A stretch of 64,000 bases of DNA from Rickettsiales bacterium (GTDB taxonomy: Bacteria > Pseudomonadota > Alphaproteobacteria > Rickettsiales > UBA3002). The notes beneath the pieces were generated by a model, which was not told the DNA's origin, did no database searches, and was given only the letters and a program-made list of their open reading frames with translations. The stretch is taken from the NCBI GenBank assembly GCA_046154225.1, contig JBJXEM010000006.1, forward strand, positions 46,124-110,123, written 5' to 3'. Each line of letters starts with the position of its first letter. Positions within the stretch are counted from its first letter, which is position 1. This document shows positions 33,073-39,869 of this stretch, piece after piece. Position numbers and translations under genes: made by a program.

Positions 33073-35187
33073 GTGCATTCAGACCCCATCGAGCCGCAGG
33101 ATTGGCGGCAGTTAAGCGACCCGGTGCTACAAGAATATGCCGTAAGGGAGGCGCAGCTTCGCGCGCAGCACAAGGCGGGCCTGTTGCCCGGACCTATGGT
33201 GATGCCGAATGGGTATGTGGTGGATGGCGTGGATTTCGCTTCCTATGCAGGCGCGGCCAAAGAGCTGGCCCGCCGCCATCGGCGAAACGGCACATTGCCG
33301 CTGGTGATGCCGCGATTAAAAAAGCCGCTGCTTGACGGCGATATTTTTAAAAATGGCGAGCTGAATAGCCCGACCTACTACAAGCTGACCAATCAGGACG
33401 TGGAGCGCATTCGCACCCGGCTGCGGGATGTCACGTTGCCGCTACTTGAGCAGGCGGTTGCCAACCGCATTCATCAGCTGATCACGCAGCAGGAAAAATA
33501 CACGCAGGCTGATGGCACAATCCCGCAGTCGGTTCAGCAGGCAACCGAAACGCTGTTGGCCGAATACCGGCCGATGCTCGAGAGAATTCGCCTTTGCCAA
33601 GCATTGAACAAGAAAGAAGTCAGGAAATATGTTAGCCACTTTGGCTACGATGTTGGCGGAAACATCGCGGCGGTGTTGAGCGTCAATAAGCCGTTCACGC
33701 TGGCAAAAACGCTGGCGGCCGTGAGAGAAAAACTGCCTGATATTCAAAAAGAGATACTTTATCAGCTGGTGCCGTGGAGCCGAAACGGGTTCGAAGGGCC
33801 GTCGCCCACGCCGCACCTGCAAGCGTTTTTCAAGCAGGATTTTCAGCAGGTGGTGGCGGCCATGATGCAGCCCGTGCTGGACGAATTGACTGAGGCGTAT
33901 CTGGCAATTGAGCAGAAGAAACAGCATGCCGCTCGCAAGGCCTCGGGTGAACATTTGGTGCCGATTGATTTGGAGTTCCAGCAGGCCCTGCGCAGCGGCA
34001 GAAAAGCCATGCTGCACGAAGCTCGAAAACTTGCGCGCGAAGTGACCGAGGGCGCCACGGAATTTGAAATTGAGTTGTTGGCCGACACGTATCGGGCAAG
34101 CAAAGATGCCGCTTTTGCCTGGGCGGAAAAAGAACGCGTCCGTCGCCAATCGCCCTCCACCACCATCCAGCTGCCGGTCGCTCAGCCAGAATATTCGGTA
34201 GGGCAGCAGCTGCGGCAGACTATGAGCCCGGGCTTTGTGAAGGCGCAGCAAACGCAGATGCAGCAACGCTGGGGCGGGGTGAAGATGGACCGGCGCGACC
34301 CGCCGCAAGCGGCGCTTTCGCCGGTTAGCATGCAGGCATTGTCGATCGCGATTGATGCGCATCTGCCGCTTGCGCTGGCGGCCCATGGGTTTCCGCTGGC
34401 CTGTGCGCAAGCCGTTTCGTTTGAGTTCGTGGCTGATTTGCTGGCAGATGTGCGCGGGCTGGAGCGGGTGAAGTCATCCTATGGCTGCCCCTACCATGCC
34501 ACGCTGACGATTGATAAGCCGCGCTTTGAGGCAGCAATGCAGCAAGCTGGCTTCAGCGATGATAAAAAAATAGCGCTGCGGCGCGACCTGCTGAAAACCA
34601 TCGCCATGATCGCCAAAGAGGCCACCCACAGCCTGACCGATCGGCGCGGCGGGTGCATGAACGTGAAAGGGTATTCGGCCGATTACTTATTTGCCTCGGG
34701 CCATGGCGATAAAAAACGCAACGGCGATGGGCGCGACAGAGGCTCGCATTTCAGACACTTACAGAAATGCTATGACGAAAATGCCGATGGGAAAATGACC
34801 ATCACGATGATTGGTGGGTGGTATTGCCGCATTTCGAATCCGTTTGAAGTGGCGGAGACGTTCAACCGCTTTTTCCATCAGGCAGGGTTGGACGGCGTGA
34901 ATCTGGCGCCGTTGCGTCGTGAGGAAAAAGCGCGGCAGCAGGCGATGGCGACGCCCGAGGATATCCAGCGGCACTTTATGCATCTTCCCAGTTGCTACGA
35001 TAATGCAAACCAACTCACGACAAGATTATTGGCTAAGCCGTATGGCTATTTAGACACCAATCAACGCTACAACACGATTAGCCGCGAGATCACTCAGGGA
35101 GTCGGCAATTTGTTTCAGCAAGGGACGCGGGCTTCCAGAGCGTCCCTGGCGGCACCACCCAAGCAGCAGCAACTGCCCGCCCGCTGA
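33073..35187 (+). CDS. hypothetical protein, 704 aa, no recognisable domain
   Basis: Uninterrupted ORF. Internal duplicated motif HFRHLQKCYDENADG / HFMHLPSCYDNANQL near the C-terminus. The start is uncertain: GTG 33073 has a weak ribosome-binding site, and the first ATG is at 33196. Confidence 0.55.
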   Translation: MHSDPIEPQDWRQLSDPVLQEYAVREAQLRAQHKAGLLPGPMVMPNGYVVDGVDFASYAGAAKELARRHRRNGTLPLVMPRLKKPLLDGDIFKNGELNSPTYYKLTNQDVERIRTRLRDVTLPLLEQAVANRIHQLITQQEKYTQADGTIPQSVQQATETLLAEYRPMLERIRLCQALNKKEVRKYVSHFGYDVGGNIAAVLSVNKPFTLAKTLAAVREKLPDIQKEILYQLVPWSRNGFEGPSPTPHLQAFFKQDFQQVVAAMMQPVLDELTEAYLAIEQKKQHAARKASGEHLVPIDLEFQQALRSGRKAMLHEARKLAREVTEGATEFEIELLADTYRASKDAAFAWAEKERVRRQSPSTTIQLPVAQPEYSVGQQLRQTMSPGFVKAQQTQMQQRWGGVKMDRRDPPQAALSPVSMQALSIAIDAHLPLALAAHGFPLACAQAVSFEFVADLLADVRGLERVKSSYGCPYHATLTIDKPRFEAAMQQAGFSDDKKIALRRDLLKTIAMIAKEATHSLTDRRGGCMNVKGYSADYLFASGHGDKKRNGDGRDRGSHFRHLQKCYDENADGKMTITMIGGWYCRISNPFEVAETFNRFFHQAGLDGVNLAPLRREEKARQQAMATPEDIQRHFMHLPSCYDNANQLTTRLLAKPYGYLDTNQRYNTISREITQGVGNLFQQGTRASRASLAAPPKQQQLPAR

Positions 35188-35304: not shown

Positions 35305-36198
35305 ATGGCCGACATCAAAGAAAAACTTCGTGAAATAGGACATAGTGGTTTTGATAAAGAGCCGCACCCCGAATTCACCTTCGATAAATCATTGCTTTCG
35401 TCGCGCGACCCGTTAACGCAGGCCGAGATTGATTATGTGAATATGCAGGTAGGCGATGCTGTCAGAAAACTGGCGGTTGAATATGGCTGCGAGCCCCAAG
35501 ATGCAGACAAGATCGAAGCGCGTTACTGGTATAGCAAAAAGGGACACGGGTTTTTCGGAAACGATCACGTCTGGGGCATCTTTTACGATCGCGACCAAAG
35601 CAATTTTGATGAGAAGCAGCTCGATGAACCGGTGCCGTACGCGATCAAAGATTTCATGCGTGAATTCGAACGCGCCATGGGCGAAGTCAATTTCAATAAA
35701 GGTAATACCACGCCTCTTGCAGAGGGCGGTCGTCGCGCCGTTGGCTTTTCACAACATGGATGGCACGGCAATTATGCTTTTATGCGCGGCGACTCACGCG
35801 ATGTGCTTCTACCCATGGTAAGGTTAATTCAGCAGTTTGATCCCGAGTTCACGATCCGTTTCGATGTGCCCGAGCAATATACCTCTTGCTACGACGGGAT
35901 CAGCGAAAAAGACCTGTCGGGCATGGCAAACGCGCATGCCTCCGTGTTCTGGATCGACCGCGAATGGGCGCAGGGCGAATTAGACAGACGTGCGCAGGGC
36001 GAGCGTTGGCGAATCATGCAAGAGCGTATCGACCATAGTCGGGTTGAAGCACAGGTGCTCGGTAAACCACAGCCCTTACTCACGCGCTTGAAAATAGCAC
36101 TGTCTAGCAAACATGTGAACACGGTCGACCCCGAAATGCCGTATGGGGGGGCAGAACCGCTGAACCCTACCGCTTGCGGAACGCTTCGAGGGAGATAA
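35305..36198 (+). CDS. hypothetical protein, 297 aa, AT-richer ORFan
   Basis: ATG is preceded by GAAGG and an AT-rich 115-bp upstream region. The gene is visibly lower in GC than the flanks. It contains QYTSCYDGISEKD, reminiscent of the CYD motif in the upstream ORF. Confidence 0.55.
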   Translation: MADIKEKLREIGHSGFDKEPHPEFTFDKSLLSSRDPLTQAEIDYVNMQVGDAVRKLAVEYGCEPQDADKIEARYWYSKKGHGFFGNDHVWGIFYDRDQSNFDEKQLDEPVPYAIKDFMREFERAMGEVNFNKGNTTPLAEGGRRAVGFSQHGWHGNYAFMRGDSRDVLLPMVRLIQQFDPEFTIRFDVPEQYTSCYDGISEKDLSGMANAHASVFWIDREWAQGELDRRAQGERWRIMQERIDHSRVEAQVLGKPQPLLTRLKIALSSKHVNTVDPEMPYGGAEPLNPTACGTLRGR

Positions 36199-36730
36199 CT
36201 TTCTCGTCGTTCGCGGCTTTGGTTTCTTCGCTGGGGGCATCTTCTTCAAAGGCGGCCATGGAGGGTTTTTCGGAGCCGTTTTTGCCGGTGACGGGGCACG
36301 CGACGGGTTCTTCGGCATTGCCGTTTGAAGCCGTGGATTTTGCGCCGTTGTTTGTGTCGCTCGCGCCTGCCGGTTTTTTGCCGTGGAATTGCAGGCCGAA
36401 TTTAATGCTGGGGTCGGCGAACGCCGTGAGTGCATCGAACGGCACCACCAGTTTTTCCGGGATGTTGTTGAAGCTGAGCATGATGGAAAACTGCGTGTCG
36501 GTAATTTTCAAATCCCAAAACTGGTGCTGCACCACGATGGTGATTTCCTCGGGGTAGCGCGCCTTTAACTGCGGCGAAATGCTGACGCCCGGGAAGTTGG
36601 TTTGAAACGAAATGAAGAAATGATGCTCGCCCGGCAGTCCGAATTTGTCGATATGCACTAACGCCTGGCGCACCACGCCGCGCATCGCCGAGTCGATCAT
36701 GCCGGGATAATCTATTGTTTCTTGGCTCAT
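36167..36730 (-). CDS. sspB: ClpXP adaptor SspB (alphaproteobacterial type)
   Basis: SspB fold region (GLPGEHHFFISFQTNFPGVSISPQLKARYPEEITIVVQHQFWDL...VVPFDALTAFADPS), an acidic/Ser-rich linker and a basic C-terminal tail ISLEAFRKR. Confidence 0.78.
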   Translation of the reverse strand: MSQETIDYPGMIDSAMRGVVRQALVHIDKFGLPGEHHFFISFQTNFPGVSISPQLKARYPEEITIVVQHQFWDLKITDTQFSIMLSFNNIPEKLVVPFDALTAFADPSIKFGLQFHGKKPAGASDTNNGAKSTASNGNAEEPVACPVTGKNGSEKPSMAAFEEDAPSEETKAANDEKVISLEAFRKR

Positions 36731-36750
36731 GGGCTTCTTATACAGTGGTT

Positions 36751-36774
36751 AGAGTCGAGAGTCGAGAGTCGAGT
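36751..36774. repeat. tandem heptamer array (AGAGTCG x3) between ssrA and sspB
   Basis: AGAGTCGAGAGTCGAGAGTCGAG read directly from the sequence. Confidence 0.85.
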
Positions 36775-36784
36775 GAAATTAACT

Positions 36785-37260
36785 AAAGTGTTTCAAGTGC
36801 CACCCGGGAGGCGACCGCCGACCCGCGAAAAATCATCCTACGCTAAAGCTACGGACGACGCTCCTTCGCCTAAGGCCGCCTTCGACCGGCGTAAGCCGTC
36901 CGAAGCCGGAGGCGAAGGGCGGTGGGGGGATTCTGTTGCCCAGCTCCCCCCGGGCTGCGTTTACGAGCTAGAGCTCGTCAAGCCACACTAAGCGGCGAGA
37001 CGGGCTGCTACGACGTTGTTGTCGTTAGCTGCAACGAGTGCTACGTTGTCGTTGGCACTTGAAAAGTGATCCGATTATGGGAGATCACCCCAAGCAAAAG
37101 CAGCGCCTTTATTGCGGTTGTCGATGCTAATTCACCCCCACAAAGCCACCGCGTTGCGGTGGCTTTGTGGAGGTGCCGGGCTCTGCCCCCGGGTCCAATC
37201 CGACTATTCCACGATACGTTTATTGCTATAGCCACTTGCGTGACAGTTCTAAATATAAGG
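36785..37260 (-). ncRNA. ssrA: tmRNA (ssrA), circularly permuted two-piece gene: acceptor piece - spacer hairpin - coding piece
   Basis: On the minus strand, ...GGAC-CCGGG-GGCAGAG-CCCGG-CACCUCC-A ends at 37168. A 27-nt hairpin follows at 37141-37167. GGGGGUGAAUUAGCAUCGAC starts at 37139. GGGGGUG pairs with CACCUCC and gives a G3:U pair. The tag frame 37056-36988 reads ANDNVALVAANDNNVVAARLAA*. The outer ends are approximate. Confidence 0.8.
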
Positions 37261-37382
37261 CAAAACGGCCGCGGGTTCAAGCCGCAACTGCGGTCAAAAA
37301 TCGACAATCCGACACGCAACCTTCACGCAACCGTCATCAAACTGTCACATCTGTTTGGTAGGGTGAAGGCTAGGAGAAACCC

Positions 37383-39869
37383 ATGGTCACTAAACCAGCT
37401 ACTACTATCCCACTAACGGACGCAGCACGTTATGCTTCGGCACTGGCCCAGTTGGGGCGTCCGCTTAGCCAAACGGAAGTGGCGCTGTTGAACCCGCAAA
37501 CCGGCAAGCTTGAAGTGGCGGATCTGAACGGGATTGCTTCTGCTCGCTTAGGCCAGTTGCGCACATTGCTACCCGCAGGCTATCAGGAGCAGTCGCGCCA
37601 GATTTCCCAGCTGCTCGAGAATTTCCAATCGACTTCGACCATTGAATTGCCCAATGGCCTAACATGGGAGGCAATCTTCGGTGCGGTTGGGTCTTACGTC
37701 AAAAAACCGGCAGGCGAAGCCTACACGCAGGCAGAAAAATTCATTGACGAGAATAAAGATAAAATCGAATTTTTGCGCGCGGCGGTTTCAGCCGGAACCA
37801 GCCTAAAAAACGGGGCCAGCAATACCGAAGCATTCTTTGCCAGCTGGAACAACGGCGCGAATGCGTCACAGAATTTTTTTGGGATTGGCCGTCAGCTCGA
37901 TATCATTAAATCCACCATCGGTGCGCGCAAGCTAACCAAGGCACAATGCGATGCTGTCGCCGACACAATTGCGCTTGCCACCTACCAGTCGGTGCAAAGT
38001 AACGGCACCGCATCGGCCGCCCTTGCCGTGTCGCCGGGCGACGCAAAGCCTAATTTTATCGATAACGTATGGTCGCTCGGCCAACGGCTGGGATCGCTTT
38101 TGGTGCATGCGCTGCCCGCTGAATGGGGCCAGTATGTACTGCAATGGGCGAACTACGCCTATGGCGGCTTTAAAGATTGGGATGCGGCAGGCGTCGCAGC
38201 GAAACAGGCCTTGGCGAACGAACCGCAGGCCGTAAGTTGGGATACGCTTGCCAAACAAAGTGCGCAAGAACGCGTGCGCAAAGCACAGCTCAGCGCCACC
38301 ACTCAAGGCCGTGCGGATGCGGCGGAAATGCTTGCCGGAGTGTCGTCAGTTGAAGGTGTTACGAATGTACCCGGCATTGCCAAGCTGGTAGCGGAAGGTG
38401 GGCCGTTCCGTGGCGCGCCCGAGAAAGACGCTAACGGCAAAACGGTTCAAAAACTCTACCTCGCACGCTATGTGAATGGCACGTTGCAAAAAGACCCGAT
38501 TCTGGTGACGGGCCCGGATGGGAAACAACGGCAAATGACCGTGGCCGATGAACAGACCCAGGCCAGTGCCAATATGGCGCCTGTGCTCGATCGCGGCGTG
38601 ACCCTCTTGAATTTGGCAAGCTACGCGGGCGGGGCAACGACGGATGCGGCGCTGACCTATGGCGGTGCCGCCCTGGCCATGACGACAGGTTACGGTATGC
38701 AGGAGGGCTTCCTGCGCCAGACACTGGGCGGCCATGCTGCGGCAGGACGTTCCGATCATCTTTATAACGGCAAATTAAAGCTCGGCAGCCAACACGCGTT
38801 GGAAGAAAAAGCCGAAGCCGCGACGAAGCGCGCCGATGCATTGAAAAACGGCGCACGTCGCTGGCCCTGGGAGCGTACGGAAGCGCAATACCGCGAACAG
38901 GCCGATGAGTTCACAAAGAAAGCCGCAAAAATTGAGGTTCGCAGTGACCATCAGCTGAAAGTGGCGATTGAGCGCAACGATCGATTCATCGACCCCAAAA
39001 CGAGCTTCAGCCCACTGAATGCGCACGCTGAAGAGTCACTCATCAAGGGCAGCAGCTGGTTCGAAAAAGCCCGTAGCGCCGTGTGGAATTCGCCGCGCAT
39101 CGTGGGCCGCTGGATGGGCGACGGGGCTGGAAAAGTTACCGATTTCGTAGCGTACCGCTCTGCGCAAGCGGGTCGCTTTGCAGTGGGCCTCGTTGAGAAA
39201 TTACCCGGTGGCGAAAAAGCGACCGAAGCCGTGGCTTGGGGAGTTAGCAAAGTTGCACCAGCACTGGTGCCTGTAGCCGAAGTAGGGGGGCGTCTGGTTG
39301 CGCCGGTTGGGGCTGCCGTTGGCGTGGGTCAGGCCGGCTACGATGTTTACCACGGCGTCAGCACCGGTGAGAAACACCACACCATTAAAGGTGTCGCGAG
39401 CTTCGGTACGATCGGTGCATCGGCCATGGCCGGTTTCTGGATGGGGGCAGGCGGCGGGACGCTCGTGCTGCCTGTAATTGGCACGATTGGCGGCGGTGTG
39501 GTGGGCGCAATTGGCGGCGCAGCGACCGGGGCACTTGCTGCCTGGGGCGGCGGCATGGTCTATGATAAACTTGATGTTGGCTACCAGATGCGTGAAGCGG
39601 AGCGGAACGCACGCACGGCGGAAATGCTGGCCAAGCGTGAGAAGCTGGCGGCCGACCCGGGCATTGCGATTGCCGTGAGCGATGTCGATGCTAAAACCCA
39701 GGCAGCACAGGCGCAGGCAAAATTGGCCGCCGCAAAAGTGCACACCACAGGTCTTGGTTCGATGACCAGCGTTGAAAATTTGATGATGTTAAATCCCGTA
39801 ACATTGCCGTTTGTTGCGGCCTCGAAAATGGCGGCGGGCATCACATCTTTCTTCACCGGAAAAGCCTAA
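37383..39869 (+). CDS. hypothetical protein, 828 aa, with C-terminal glycine-zipper membrane-insertion-like region
   Basis: ATG is preceded by TAGGAGA. No signal peptide. Residues around 640-720 form Gly/Ala-rich hydrophobic helices (GASAMAGFWMGAGGGTLVLPVIGTIGGGVVGAIGGAATGALAAWGGG). Confidence 0.6.
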   Translation: MVTKPATTIPLTDAARYASALAQLGRPLSQTEVALLNPQTGKLEVADLNGIASARLGQLRTLLPAGYQEQSRQISQLLENFQSTSTIELPNGLTWEAIFGAVGSYVKKPAGEAYTQAEKFIDENKDKIEFLRAAVSAGTSLKNGASNTEAFFASWNNGANASQNFFGIGRQLDIIKSTIGARKLTKAQCDAVADTIALATYQSVQSNGTASAALAVSPGDAKPNFIDNVWSLGQRLGSLLVHALPAEWGQYVLQWANYAYGGFKDWDAAGVAAKQALANEPQAVSWDTLAKQSAQERVRKAQLSATTQGRADAAEMLAGVSSVEGVTNVPGIAKLVAEGGPFRGAPEKDANGKTVQKLYLARYVNGTLQKDPILVTGPDGKQRQMTVADEQTQASANMAPVLDRGVTLLNLASYAGGATTDAALTYGGAALAMTTGYGMQEGFLRQTLGGHAAAGRSDHLYNGKLKLGSQHALEEKAEAATKRADALKNGARRWPWERTEAQYREQADEFTKKAAKIEVRSDHQLKVAIERNDRFIDPKTSFSPLNAHAEESLIKGSSWFEKARSAVWNSPRIVGRWMGDGAGKVTDFVAYRSAQAGRFAVGLVEKLPGGEKATEAVAWGVSKVAPALVPVAEVGGRLVAPVGAAVGVGQAGYDVYHGVSTGEKHHTIKGVASFGTIGASAMAGFWMGAGGGTLVLPVIGTIGGGVVGAIGGAATGALAAWGGGMVYDKLDVGYQMREAERNARTAEMLAKREKLAADPGIAIAVSDVDAKTQAAQAQAKLAAAKVHTTGLGSMTSVENLMMLNPVTLPFVAASKMAAGITSFFTGKA

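Follow-up and report, generated by a model that had tools for sequence, protein, structure and literature searches.

Transfer-messenger RNA (tmRNA), the product of the ssrA gene, is reportedly made in two pieces in Caulobacter crescentus, according to work attributed to Keiler, Shapiro and Williams in 2000. In alphaproteobacteria ssrA is linked to sspB, and the natural ssrA tags known to us each carry one adaptor site. The Caulobacter tag is AANDNFAEEFAVAA, including the alanine borne by the tmRNA itself, and deletion of sspB in that organism slows the degradation of tagged proteins (PMC9393093); the modal length of tmRNA tags is 10 residues (PMC11915505). Here we describe the ssrA gene within a 64,000-nucleotide (nt) stretch of DNA from a Rickettsiales bacterium (assembly GCA_046154225.1, contig JBJXEM010000006.1, positions 46,124 to 110,123), referred to as the window, in which the start of the tag frame is duplicated in tandem. 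We hold it to be very probable that the gene is a permuted ssrA and that its tag has 22 residues, the two claims being taken jointly. The wider proposal, that the degradation tag of an entire uncultured lineage of alphaproteobacteria is naturally bivalent, with two ANDN adaptor sites at a fixed spacing of nine residues, is put forward tentatively and we regard it as rather unlikely.

A permuted ssrA gene with a doubled tag frame

The gene is a circularly permuted, two-piece alphaproteobacterial ssrA on the minus strand. The Rfam alpha_tmRNA model RF01849, run with Infernal, matches over its full length at 36921-37284 with 196.7 bits (gathering score 50), the general permuted-tmRNA model RF04321 also matches over its full length (116.6 bits, threshold 47), and ARAGORN likewise calls a permuted tmRNA, at 36747-37258. 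The permuted order can be read directly, with the T-arm and acceptor 3' strand at 37192-37168, a spacer at 37167-37140 and then GGGGGUG at 37139-37133. A sequence-only reading of this locus had proposed exactly such a gene, whose two pieces together make up a G3:U acceptor stem; both Rfam matches and the covariation described below agree with it, and the covariance model places the T-arm precisely where it had been noted. That reading had also treated a second ssrA copy as evidence to the contrary, and within the 64 kb, the scope of this count, a single copy is present.

Downstream of pseudoknot 1 (PK1) the tag frame begins with alanine, ends in hydrophobic residues and has its stop codon in the loop of helix 5. 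It encodes ANDNVALVAANDNNVVAARLAA in 22 codons followed by a stop (37056-36988, minus strand), the codons being GCC AAC GAC AAC GUA GCA CUC GUU GCA, then GCU AAC GAC AAC AAC GUC GUA GCA GCC CGU CUC GCC GCU UAG. The first tag repeat (codons 1-9, ANDNVALVA, 37030-37056, minus strand) starts at the canonical resume codon and is followed by the second repeat with its tail (codons 10-22 and the stop, ANDNNVVAARLAA, 36988-37029, minus strand), such that an NDN-type motif occurs twice, at residues 2-4 and 11-13. The in-frame tandem duplication of ANDN pointed out by the sequence-only reading is therefore present as described, since a repeat search reports a direct repeat with 27-nt spacing in the tag frame and, in the Rfam alignment, 27 nt of this frame form an insertion relative to the alphaproteobacterial consensus.

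To keep the sample unbiased, relatives were sought by way of the adjoining gene, sspB, and not by the tag. A genome scan with the window SspB yielded 79 loci, 20 of which were scanned with Rfam; in 18 of these an alpha_tmRNA lies just upstream of sspB, and the SspB proteins of these 18 relatives share 43-83% identity with that of the window. A 22-codon frame with both ANDN motifs exactly 27 nt apart is found in all 18. Absence of the upstream copy from the frame of relatives had been named beforehand as a way in which the duplication might be refuted, and the outcome is the opposite, as the copy is kept in frame in every one of them. The relatives are metagenome-assembled genomes, labelled by their submitters as Rickettsiales, Azospirillum, Rhodospirillaceae or Alphaproteobacteria, while the remaining loci, mostly Hyphomicrobiales, have ordinary tags of 12-13 residues such as ANDNYAPVAVAA and ANDNYAEARLAA. 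A second tag-independent sample, from a metagenome scan with the T-arm sequence GGACCCGGGGGCRGARCCCGGC, gave about 30 further double-tag genes, versions with 21 and 24 residues among them, together with single-tag genes (ANDNRLALAA, ANDNVALRAAA) and lineages with long tags that are not repetitive. The doubled tag is real, and it is ancient within its lineage.

Two other tag types carried by alphaproteobacterial lineages should be mentioned. Long non-repetitive tags of 28-34 residues accompany the same T-arm at loci L082, L087, L098, L115, L132, L140, L141, L144, L149, L155, L171, L174, L190 and L196; AKASTGEVTVSGKNVKFSARTAKAESFAV and AKKYNAFGQMVANLNASNLNGERVAVAVAA are examples, and the contigs of long-tag loci have a GC content of 39-47%. 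A low-GC lineage (34-39%; L134, L154, L166, L188) has tags of the form ANDN-x(3-5)-A-CNDN, in which the motifs are spaced by 7-9 codons and encoded by different nucleotides.

Resume codon, tag length and adaptor sites

The first tag codon lies at the canonical resume site, and both repeats are conserved at the level of the peptide. Given this position, the signal upstream of it and the synonymous type of variation in copy 1, the tag is most likely one of 22 residues with two ANDN motifs and not one of 13; both lengths had been offered by the sequence-only reading, and the comparative data favour the longer and disfavour the shorter. In the double-tag clade the first ANDN lies 82-85 nt from the 5' end of the coding piece, and the single ANDN of single-tag alphaproteobacteria lies at 83-86 nt in 51 of 52 cases. 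The choice of resume codon depends on positions -6 to +1, which are read by SmpB (review PMC3985003). Before copy 1, position -4 is A and position -1 is U in 46/46 unique double-tag sequences, with A at -3 in 44 of them and a pyrimidine at -5, and copy 2 is preceded by GUUGCN. Variation within copy 1 is of a coding type: among the 19 SspB-anchored sequences the variable sites at codon positions 1, 2 and 3 number 2, 1 and 7 of nine each, and codons 1, 3, 4, 6 and 9 show synonymous changes only. Across the pooled set of 46, all four alanine codons occur at Ala1 and GAT and GAC are found 23:23 at Asp3, and Ala6 (46/46), Val8 (45/46) and Ala9 (46/46), none of which was used in sequence selection, are almost invariant as residues. 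An NDN-coding motif is found in 138 alphaproteobacterial tmRNAs, 50 of which have two, and the spacings between the two are all multiples of three (27 nt in 48 cases, 24 nt in one and 21 nt in one). Peptides containing AANDNVALVAANDN in tagged proteins would fit the 22-residue reading.

Immediately downstream of ssrA on the same strand is sspB (36167-36730, minus strand; Pfam SspB, 9.2e-43), encoding an alphaproteobacterial-type adaptor for ssrA-tagged proteins. Searches against the PDB align the window SspB with Agrobacterium 2NYS (3.8e-38) and Caulobacter SspB 2QAZ (6.5e-29), and also with 2QAS, the alignments to 2NYS and 2QAZ covering the whole of its substrate-binding domain. The gene directly follows ssrA here and in most double-tag loci. 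Two loci, L007 and L013 (SspB 75-77% identical), have no tmRNA upstream of sspB in the sequence at hand, so that either the linkage is not universal or these contigs are incomplete.

The following sequence of events is proposed. A single precursor would be transcribed, then cut and trimmed at the long helix of acceptor stem and spacer to give an acceptor piece and a coding piece; after enzymatic completion of CCA the two pieces would pair to form an alanine-accepting tRNA-like domain, and trans-translation would resume at the first GCC (37056), adding the 22-residue tag ANDNVALVA-ANDNNVVAARLAA after the tmRNA-borne alanine. The tag probably arose when the first 27 nt of an ordinary alphaproteobacterial tag of ~13 residues were duplicated in tandem and in frame, and peptide-level selection would have maintained the duplication since; copy 2 resembles a complete ordinary tag and copy 1 is a nine-residue N-terminal addition, as expected if the upstream resume signal stayed with the new copy. 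The C-terminal LAA is the presumed ClpX degron, and both ANDN motifs would most likely serve as recognition sites for the SspB encoded next door, where two sites would raise affinity or permit bivalent engagement of the SspB dimer. This two-site role, taken alone, strikes us as possible if somewhat doubtful. Were it true, a single substrate with the bivalent tag would engage an SspB dimer at both its grooves or bring in two adaptors, and the stoichiometry and affinity of delivery to ClpXP would be altered relative to every characterised ssrA system.

Two other explanations compete with parts of this proposal. The tag could be the 13-residue ANDNNVVAARLAA, with translation resuming at the second GCU and the upstream copy acting as an untranslated structural element (CAACGA/UCGUUG) that presents the resume codon. 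Copy 2 with its tail does resemble a complete ordinary alphaproteobacterial tag (cf. ANDNYAEARLAA and ANDNNAKGYALAA), a 5-base-pair (bp) AACGA/UYGUU hairpin is predicted in the consensus fold, and hardly any third-position change is seen in codon 8 (GUU) or codon 2 (AAC); yet the distance of the second GCU from the 5' end of the coding piece is 109-112 nt, away from the 83-86 nt of single-tag genes, its GUUGCN context lacks the A at -4 and the U at -1 that are invariant before copy 1, copy 1 varies as coding sequence does (2/1/7) with Ala1, Asp3, Asn4 and Ala9 synonymously free, and every NDN-NDN spacing is divisible by three. The proposed pairing fares no better in the relatives, most of which retain only 5 bp of it: 22 of 41 sequences have A-G in place of its sixth pair, C3-G25, and compensatory changes are absent throughout. 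The consensus fold in fact predicts small hairpins in both repeats, AACGA/UYGUU in copy 1 and ACGAC/GUCGU in copy 2, and in neither of them were compensatory changes found at any pair among the 41 sequences, so that a structural role for the first repeat is no more than possible. Some RNA structure within the frame is plausible and gives no argument for copy 1 being untranslated. We consider resumption at the second GCU improbable.

The other explanation accepts a tag of 22 residues and denies it two adaptor sites: the first repeat would be a spacer or extender, or serve another protease or factor, with SspB reading one ANDN. It draws on the other alphaproteobacterial lineages with the same T-arm, whose non-repetitive tags of 27-34 residues indicate that long tags occur without repeats, on the finding in Escherichia coli that residues inserted between the SspB and ClpX sites strengthen delivery (PMC9963277; PMC8138137), and on the low-GC ANDN..CNDN lineage, which has no adjacent sspB. 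A mere spacer, however, would need neither the invariant N-D-N seen in 18/18 unselected relatives nor the A-[LF]-V-A linker, and the double motif persists in a second lineage with other nucleotides and another spacing. The low-GC lineage argues on this account for selection on two NDN motifs as peptide. We judge the spacer explanation to be unlikely, though worth keeping in view.

Several considerations weigh against a 22-residue tag with two adaptor sites. The pooled 46 sequences were picked by a pattern requiring both ANDN motifs, so that the lack of variation they show at codons 1-4 and 10-13 is partly circular, the 18 SspB-anchored relatives and codons 5-9 being free of this bias; and because the sequences are phylogenetically related, their counts overstate the number of independent events. 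Codons 10-12 (GCU AAC GAC), 15 (GUC) and 8 (GUU) show near-zero synonymous change, unlike codons 1, 3 and 9, and this points to an additional constraint at the level of the RNA. We infer both the use of the first resume codon and the processing of the RNA in this lineage from sequence comparison. Linkage of ssrA to sspB is equally present in single-tag lineages and so lends no specific support to a two-site role, and no sspB was found within 2-3 kb downstream in the low-GC double-motif lineage. Finally, the connection of the tag to SspB draws on gene adjacency, on the Caulobacter tag and sspB deletion, and on work attributed to Lessner and to Chien, both of 2007, in which alphaproteobacterial SspB is reported to read the NDN motif.

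Two-piece architecture and flanking sequence

The acceptor piece (37168-37245, minus strand) comprises a 5' hairpin, the 3' strand of helix P2, the T-arm, the acceptor 3' strand and the discriminator, its 5' end at 37245 being approximate and placed from the position of the promoter. The candidate ssrA promoter, TTGAAC-17-TATATT (37252-37280, minus strand), is suggested by 9/12 consensus matches, and positions 1-33 of the RF01849 model align over it, an overlap with the conserved 5' part of that model. The T-arm CCGGG/GGCAGAG/CCCGG, as aligned by Infernal, occupies 37192-37176 (stem 37192-37188/37180-37176, loop 37187-37181) and is followed by the acceptor 3' strand CACCUCC (37175-37169), the discriminator A (37168) and CAA in place of CCA (37167-37165). 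The coding piece (36921-37139, minus strand), delimited by the end of the RF01849 match at 36921 and by covariation in relatives, opens with the acceptor 5' strand GGGGGUG (37139-37133) and the P2 5' strand, and contains PK1 (about 37091-37066), the tag frame, helix 5 (36996-36982, its loop bearing the stop codon), a further hairpin (36978-36963) and pseudoknot 2 (PK2, about 36955-36924). Conservation among relatives ceases at ~36921, as does the Rfam model, so that the gene is shorter on its 3' side than the extent of 36785-37260 given in the sequence-only reading; the gene itself was correctly located, its 3' limit at 36785 was not.

The two-piece 7-bp acceptor stem is supported by covariation, with six compensated variants. 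Among the 18 relatives the acceptor 3' strand takes the forms CACCUCC, CGGCUCC, CAGGUCC, CGCCUCC, CAGCUCC and CGUCUCC, and the exact complement of each sits 82-85 nt upstream of the tag, with G3:U always kept. Covariation is seen also in PK1 stem 2, read directly in the relatives (GUGAUC/GAUCAC against GUGACC/GGUCAC), in helix 5 (GCCGC/GUGGC, GCGGC/GUCGC, GCUGC/GUAGC) and in PK2 (GGGGGGA/UCCCCCC against GAGGGGA/UCCCCUC), and the hairpin after helix 5 likewise has compensated changes.

Between the two pieces lies the intervening sequence (37140-37167, minus strand), made up of CAA and a perfect hairpin and presumably removed on maturation. The 27-nt spacer hairpin (37167-37141) has 12 perfect bp and a 3-nt loop, and together with the acceptor stem it forms a continuous 20-bp helix in the precursor (arms 37133-37152/37156-37175, 95% complementary). 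Locus L004 has the same spacer hairpin with a compensatory change of G-C to A-U. The intervening sequence is 8-183 nt long in close relatives (L001-L022, L045) and apparently 342 and 543 nt in two metagenome matches (L082, L143); its long versions in L015, L017 and L022 have common termini, CCNAAGUUCG...CGAAUUUCGGC, an indication of an inserted element.

Two features that the sequence-only reading had singled out as unusual belong to the ordinary range of this family. The alpha_tmRNA consensus T-loop is GGCgGUA, and all 71 alphaproteobacterial tmRNAs compared have GGCRGNN (39 GGCGGUA, 14 GGCAGUA, the others GGCRGAR), so that the GGCAGAG of the window is of the usual GGC type; AG or AA rather than UA at positions 6-7 is the sole mark of a wider group, single-tag lineages included. 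As for the 3' end, an encoded CCA is indeed missing and CAA is found in its place, but this is not exceptional, as 14 of the 71 lack a perfect CCA: the discriminator is followed by CCA in 57, CCC in 9, CCG in 2, CCU in 1 and CAA in 2, the last being the window and L004. According to the tmRNA database paper (PMC11915505), this position is "not always encoding CCA". Within the spacer helix of the window, CAA is paired with UUG, and CCA would be completed by the CCA-adding enzyme.

Automatic annotation of this lineage is unreliable, since ARAGORN missed 10 of 18 clade tmRNAs found by Rfam (L001, L002, L004, L008, L012, L014, L015, L017, L019, L022) and miscalled the tag of the window. The check with ARAGORN proposed in the sequence-only reading did find the gene, with the tag given as EGASSVALA followed by a stop (36867-36838); this candidate was rejected, as relatives have nothing comparable and its position is within the terminator-like hairpin beyond PK2, which is not conserved. 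For L016 the program gives a spurious tag of 30 residues.

The region after PK2 (36828-36921, minus strand) consists of a compound hairpin of 63 nt (36921-36859), a second hairpin (36858-36833) and a run of five U (36832-36828), with a folding z of -2.6. It is probably the ssrA terminator, judging by the predicted fold, although a scan for the terminator consensus did not flag it (loop >8). The sequence is not conserved; in relatives, PK2 is directly followed by other hairpin-plus-U terminators, and beyond these the intergenic sequence is unrelated among them. At L008, L009 and L011 the tmRNA 3' end, CCGGGCAACAGAAUCCCCUCAC, recurs once or twice in the interval from the tag stop to sspB, with 100-200 nt of unrelated sequence between copies, and the extra copies resemble att-type duplications from insertions at the ssrA 3' end.

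Beyond the putative terminator the 12-mer UGGCACUUGAAA (36791-36802, minus strand) is the perfect complement of UUUCAAGUGCCA at 37064-37053, which spans positions -8 to +4 of the resume codon. The sequence-only reading had reported this complementarity as 10 nt involving the 3' end of the tmRNA; it is real, extends over 12 nt, and its UGGCACUUGAAA arm lies outside the conserved gene that ends at ~36921; 26 nt separate it from the U-run before it and 61 nt from the sspB ATG after it. It might be functional, with the sspB leader or a read-through ssrA precursor pairing with the resume region and so coupling adaptor expression to tmRNA activity. Chance is an unlikely source of a perfect match over the very positions that surround the resume codon, as 200 shuffles of the intergenic region produced no complementarity as long as 12 nt and the 12-mer is present only at these two places in the 64 kb. 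Against a function stand the relatives, in none of which, of 17 testable, is complementarity between the same regions above chance, the position of the arm 26 nt downstream of a terminator-like hairpin and U5, and its overlap with a motif, GTGGCRCTT, whose versions in relatives do not match their own tmRNA. We therefore see the pairing as very improbable as a regulatory device; the 12-nt match is probably a lineage-specific, fortuitous extension of that motif, outside the tmRNA.

The longer form AAGTGGCRCTT recurs, like GTGGCRCTT, upstream of sspB in L003, L005, L006 and L022, that of L005 being the perfect palindrome AAGTG-G-CACTT, and it may be an operator; its version in the window (36791-36803) overlaps the 12-mer. 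A sigma-54 promoter reading of TGGCAC within the 12-mer was rejected, its spacing to any GC element being wrong. Just upstream of the ribosome-binding region of sspB the window has a tandem heptamer, (GACTCTC) x3 (36750-36770, minus strand), and tandem repeats occur at the same place in L001, (GAACTCT) x4, and in L008 and L011, (CTCAARG) x3. The flanking open reading frames at 37383-39869, 33073-35187 and 35305-36198, all on the plus strand, encode 828, 704 and 297 residues with no Pfam match, and no exact sequence on record was found for the 828-residue product (37383-39869).

Comparison with known tmRNA and adaptor systems

The gene itself is of the textbook kind, its T-loop and 3' end included. 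The clade-wide doubled tag is apparently undescribed: no description of the tag strings was found in a search of open-access literature text, and the doubled tag is not mentioned in the text of the tmRNA database paper or in those of its supplements that were searched (PMC11915505), although double-tag sequences are probably already held in the curated tmRNA database. An in-frame duplicated tag across a deep uncultured lineage amounts to a natural experiment on how the number and spacing of adaptor sites bear on ClpXP delivery, a question for which engineered E. coli tags such as DAS+4 have so far been the main tool, and should be of moderate interest to those working on trans-translation and adaptor-mediated proteolysis.

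The two-piece tmRNA of Caulobacter crescentus shares with that of the window the permuted order, in which an intervening sequence separates the acceptor piece from the coding piece that follows it, a G3:U acceptor stem built from both pieces, a GGC-type T-loop, a coding piece with only PK1, the tag, helix 5 and PK2, a tag that starts with ANDN and ends in hydrophobic residues and AA, and the presence of sspB. The two differ in the tag, which in the window has 22 codons and an internal nine-codon repeat where Caulobacter has AANDNFAEEFAVAA (PMC9393093), in T-loop positions 6-7 (AG/AA in the window group, UA in Caulobacter), in the encoded 3' end (CAA against CCA) and in the context before the resume codon (YAARU in double-tag genes against UAGUU). 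As in delivery to ClpXP by E. coli SspB and Caulobacter SspB-alpha, an N-terminal adaptor-type motif is combined with a C-terminal LAA, but the known natural tags differ from that of the window, which has two putative adaptor sites nine residues apart; its nearest functional analogue is found among engineered tags with extra spacing (DAS+4). Long tmRNA tags elsewhere resemble it in lying well above the modal length, as do the 27-34-residue tags of alphaproteobacterial lineages with the same T-arm, whereas those tags, unlike that of the window, have no internal repeat and do not repeat NDN.

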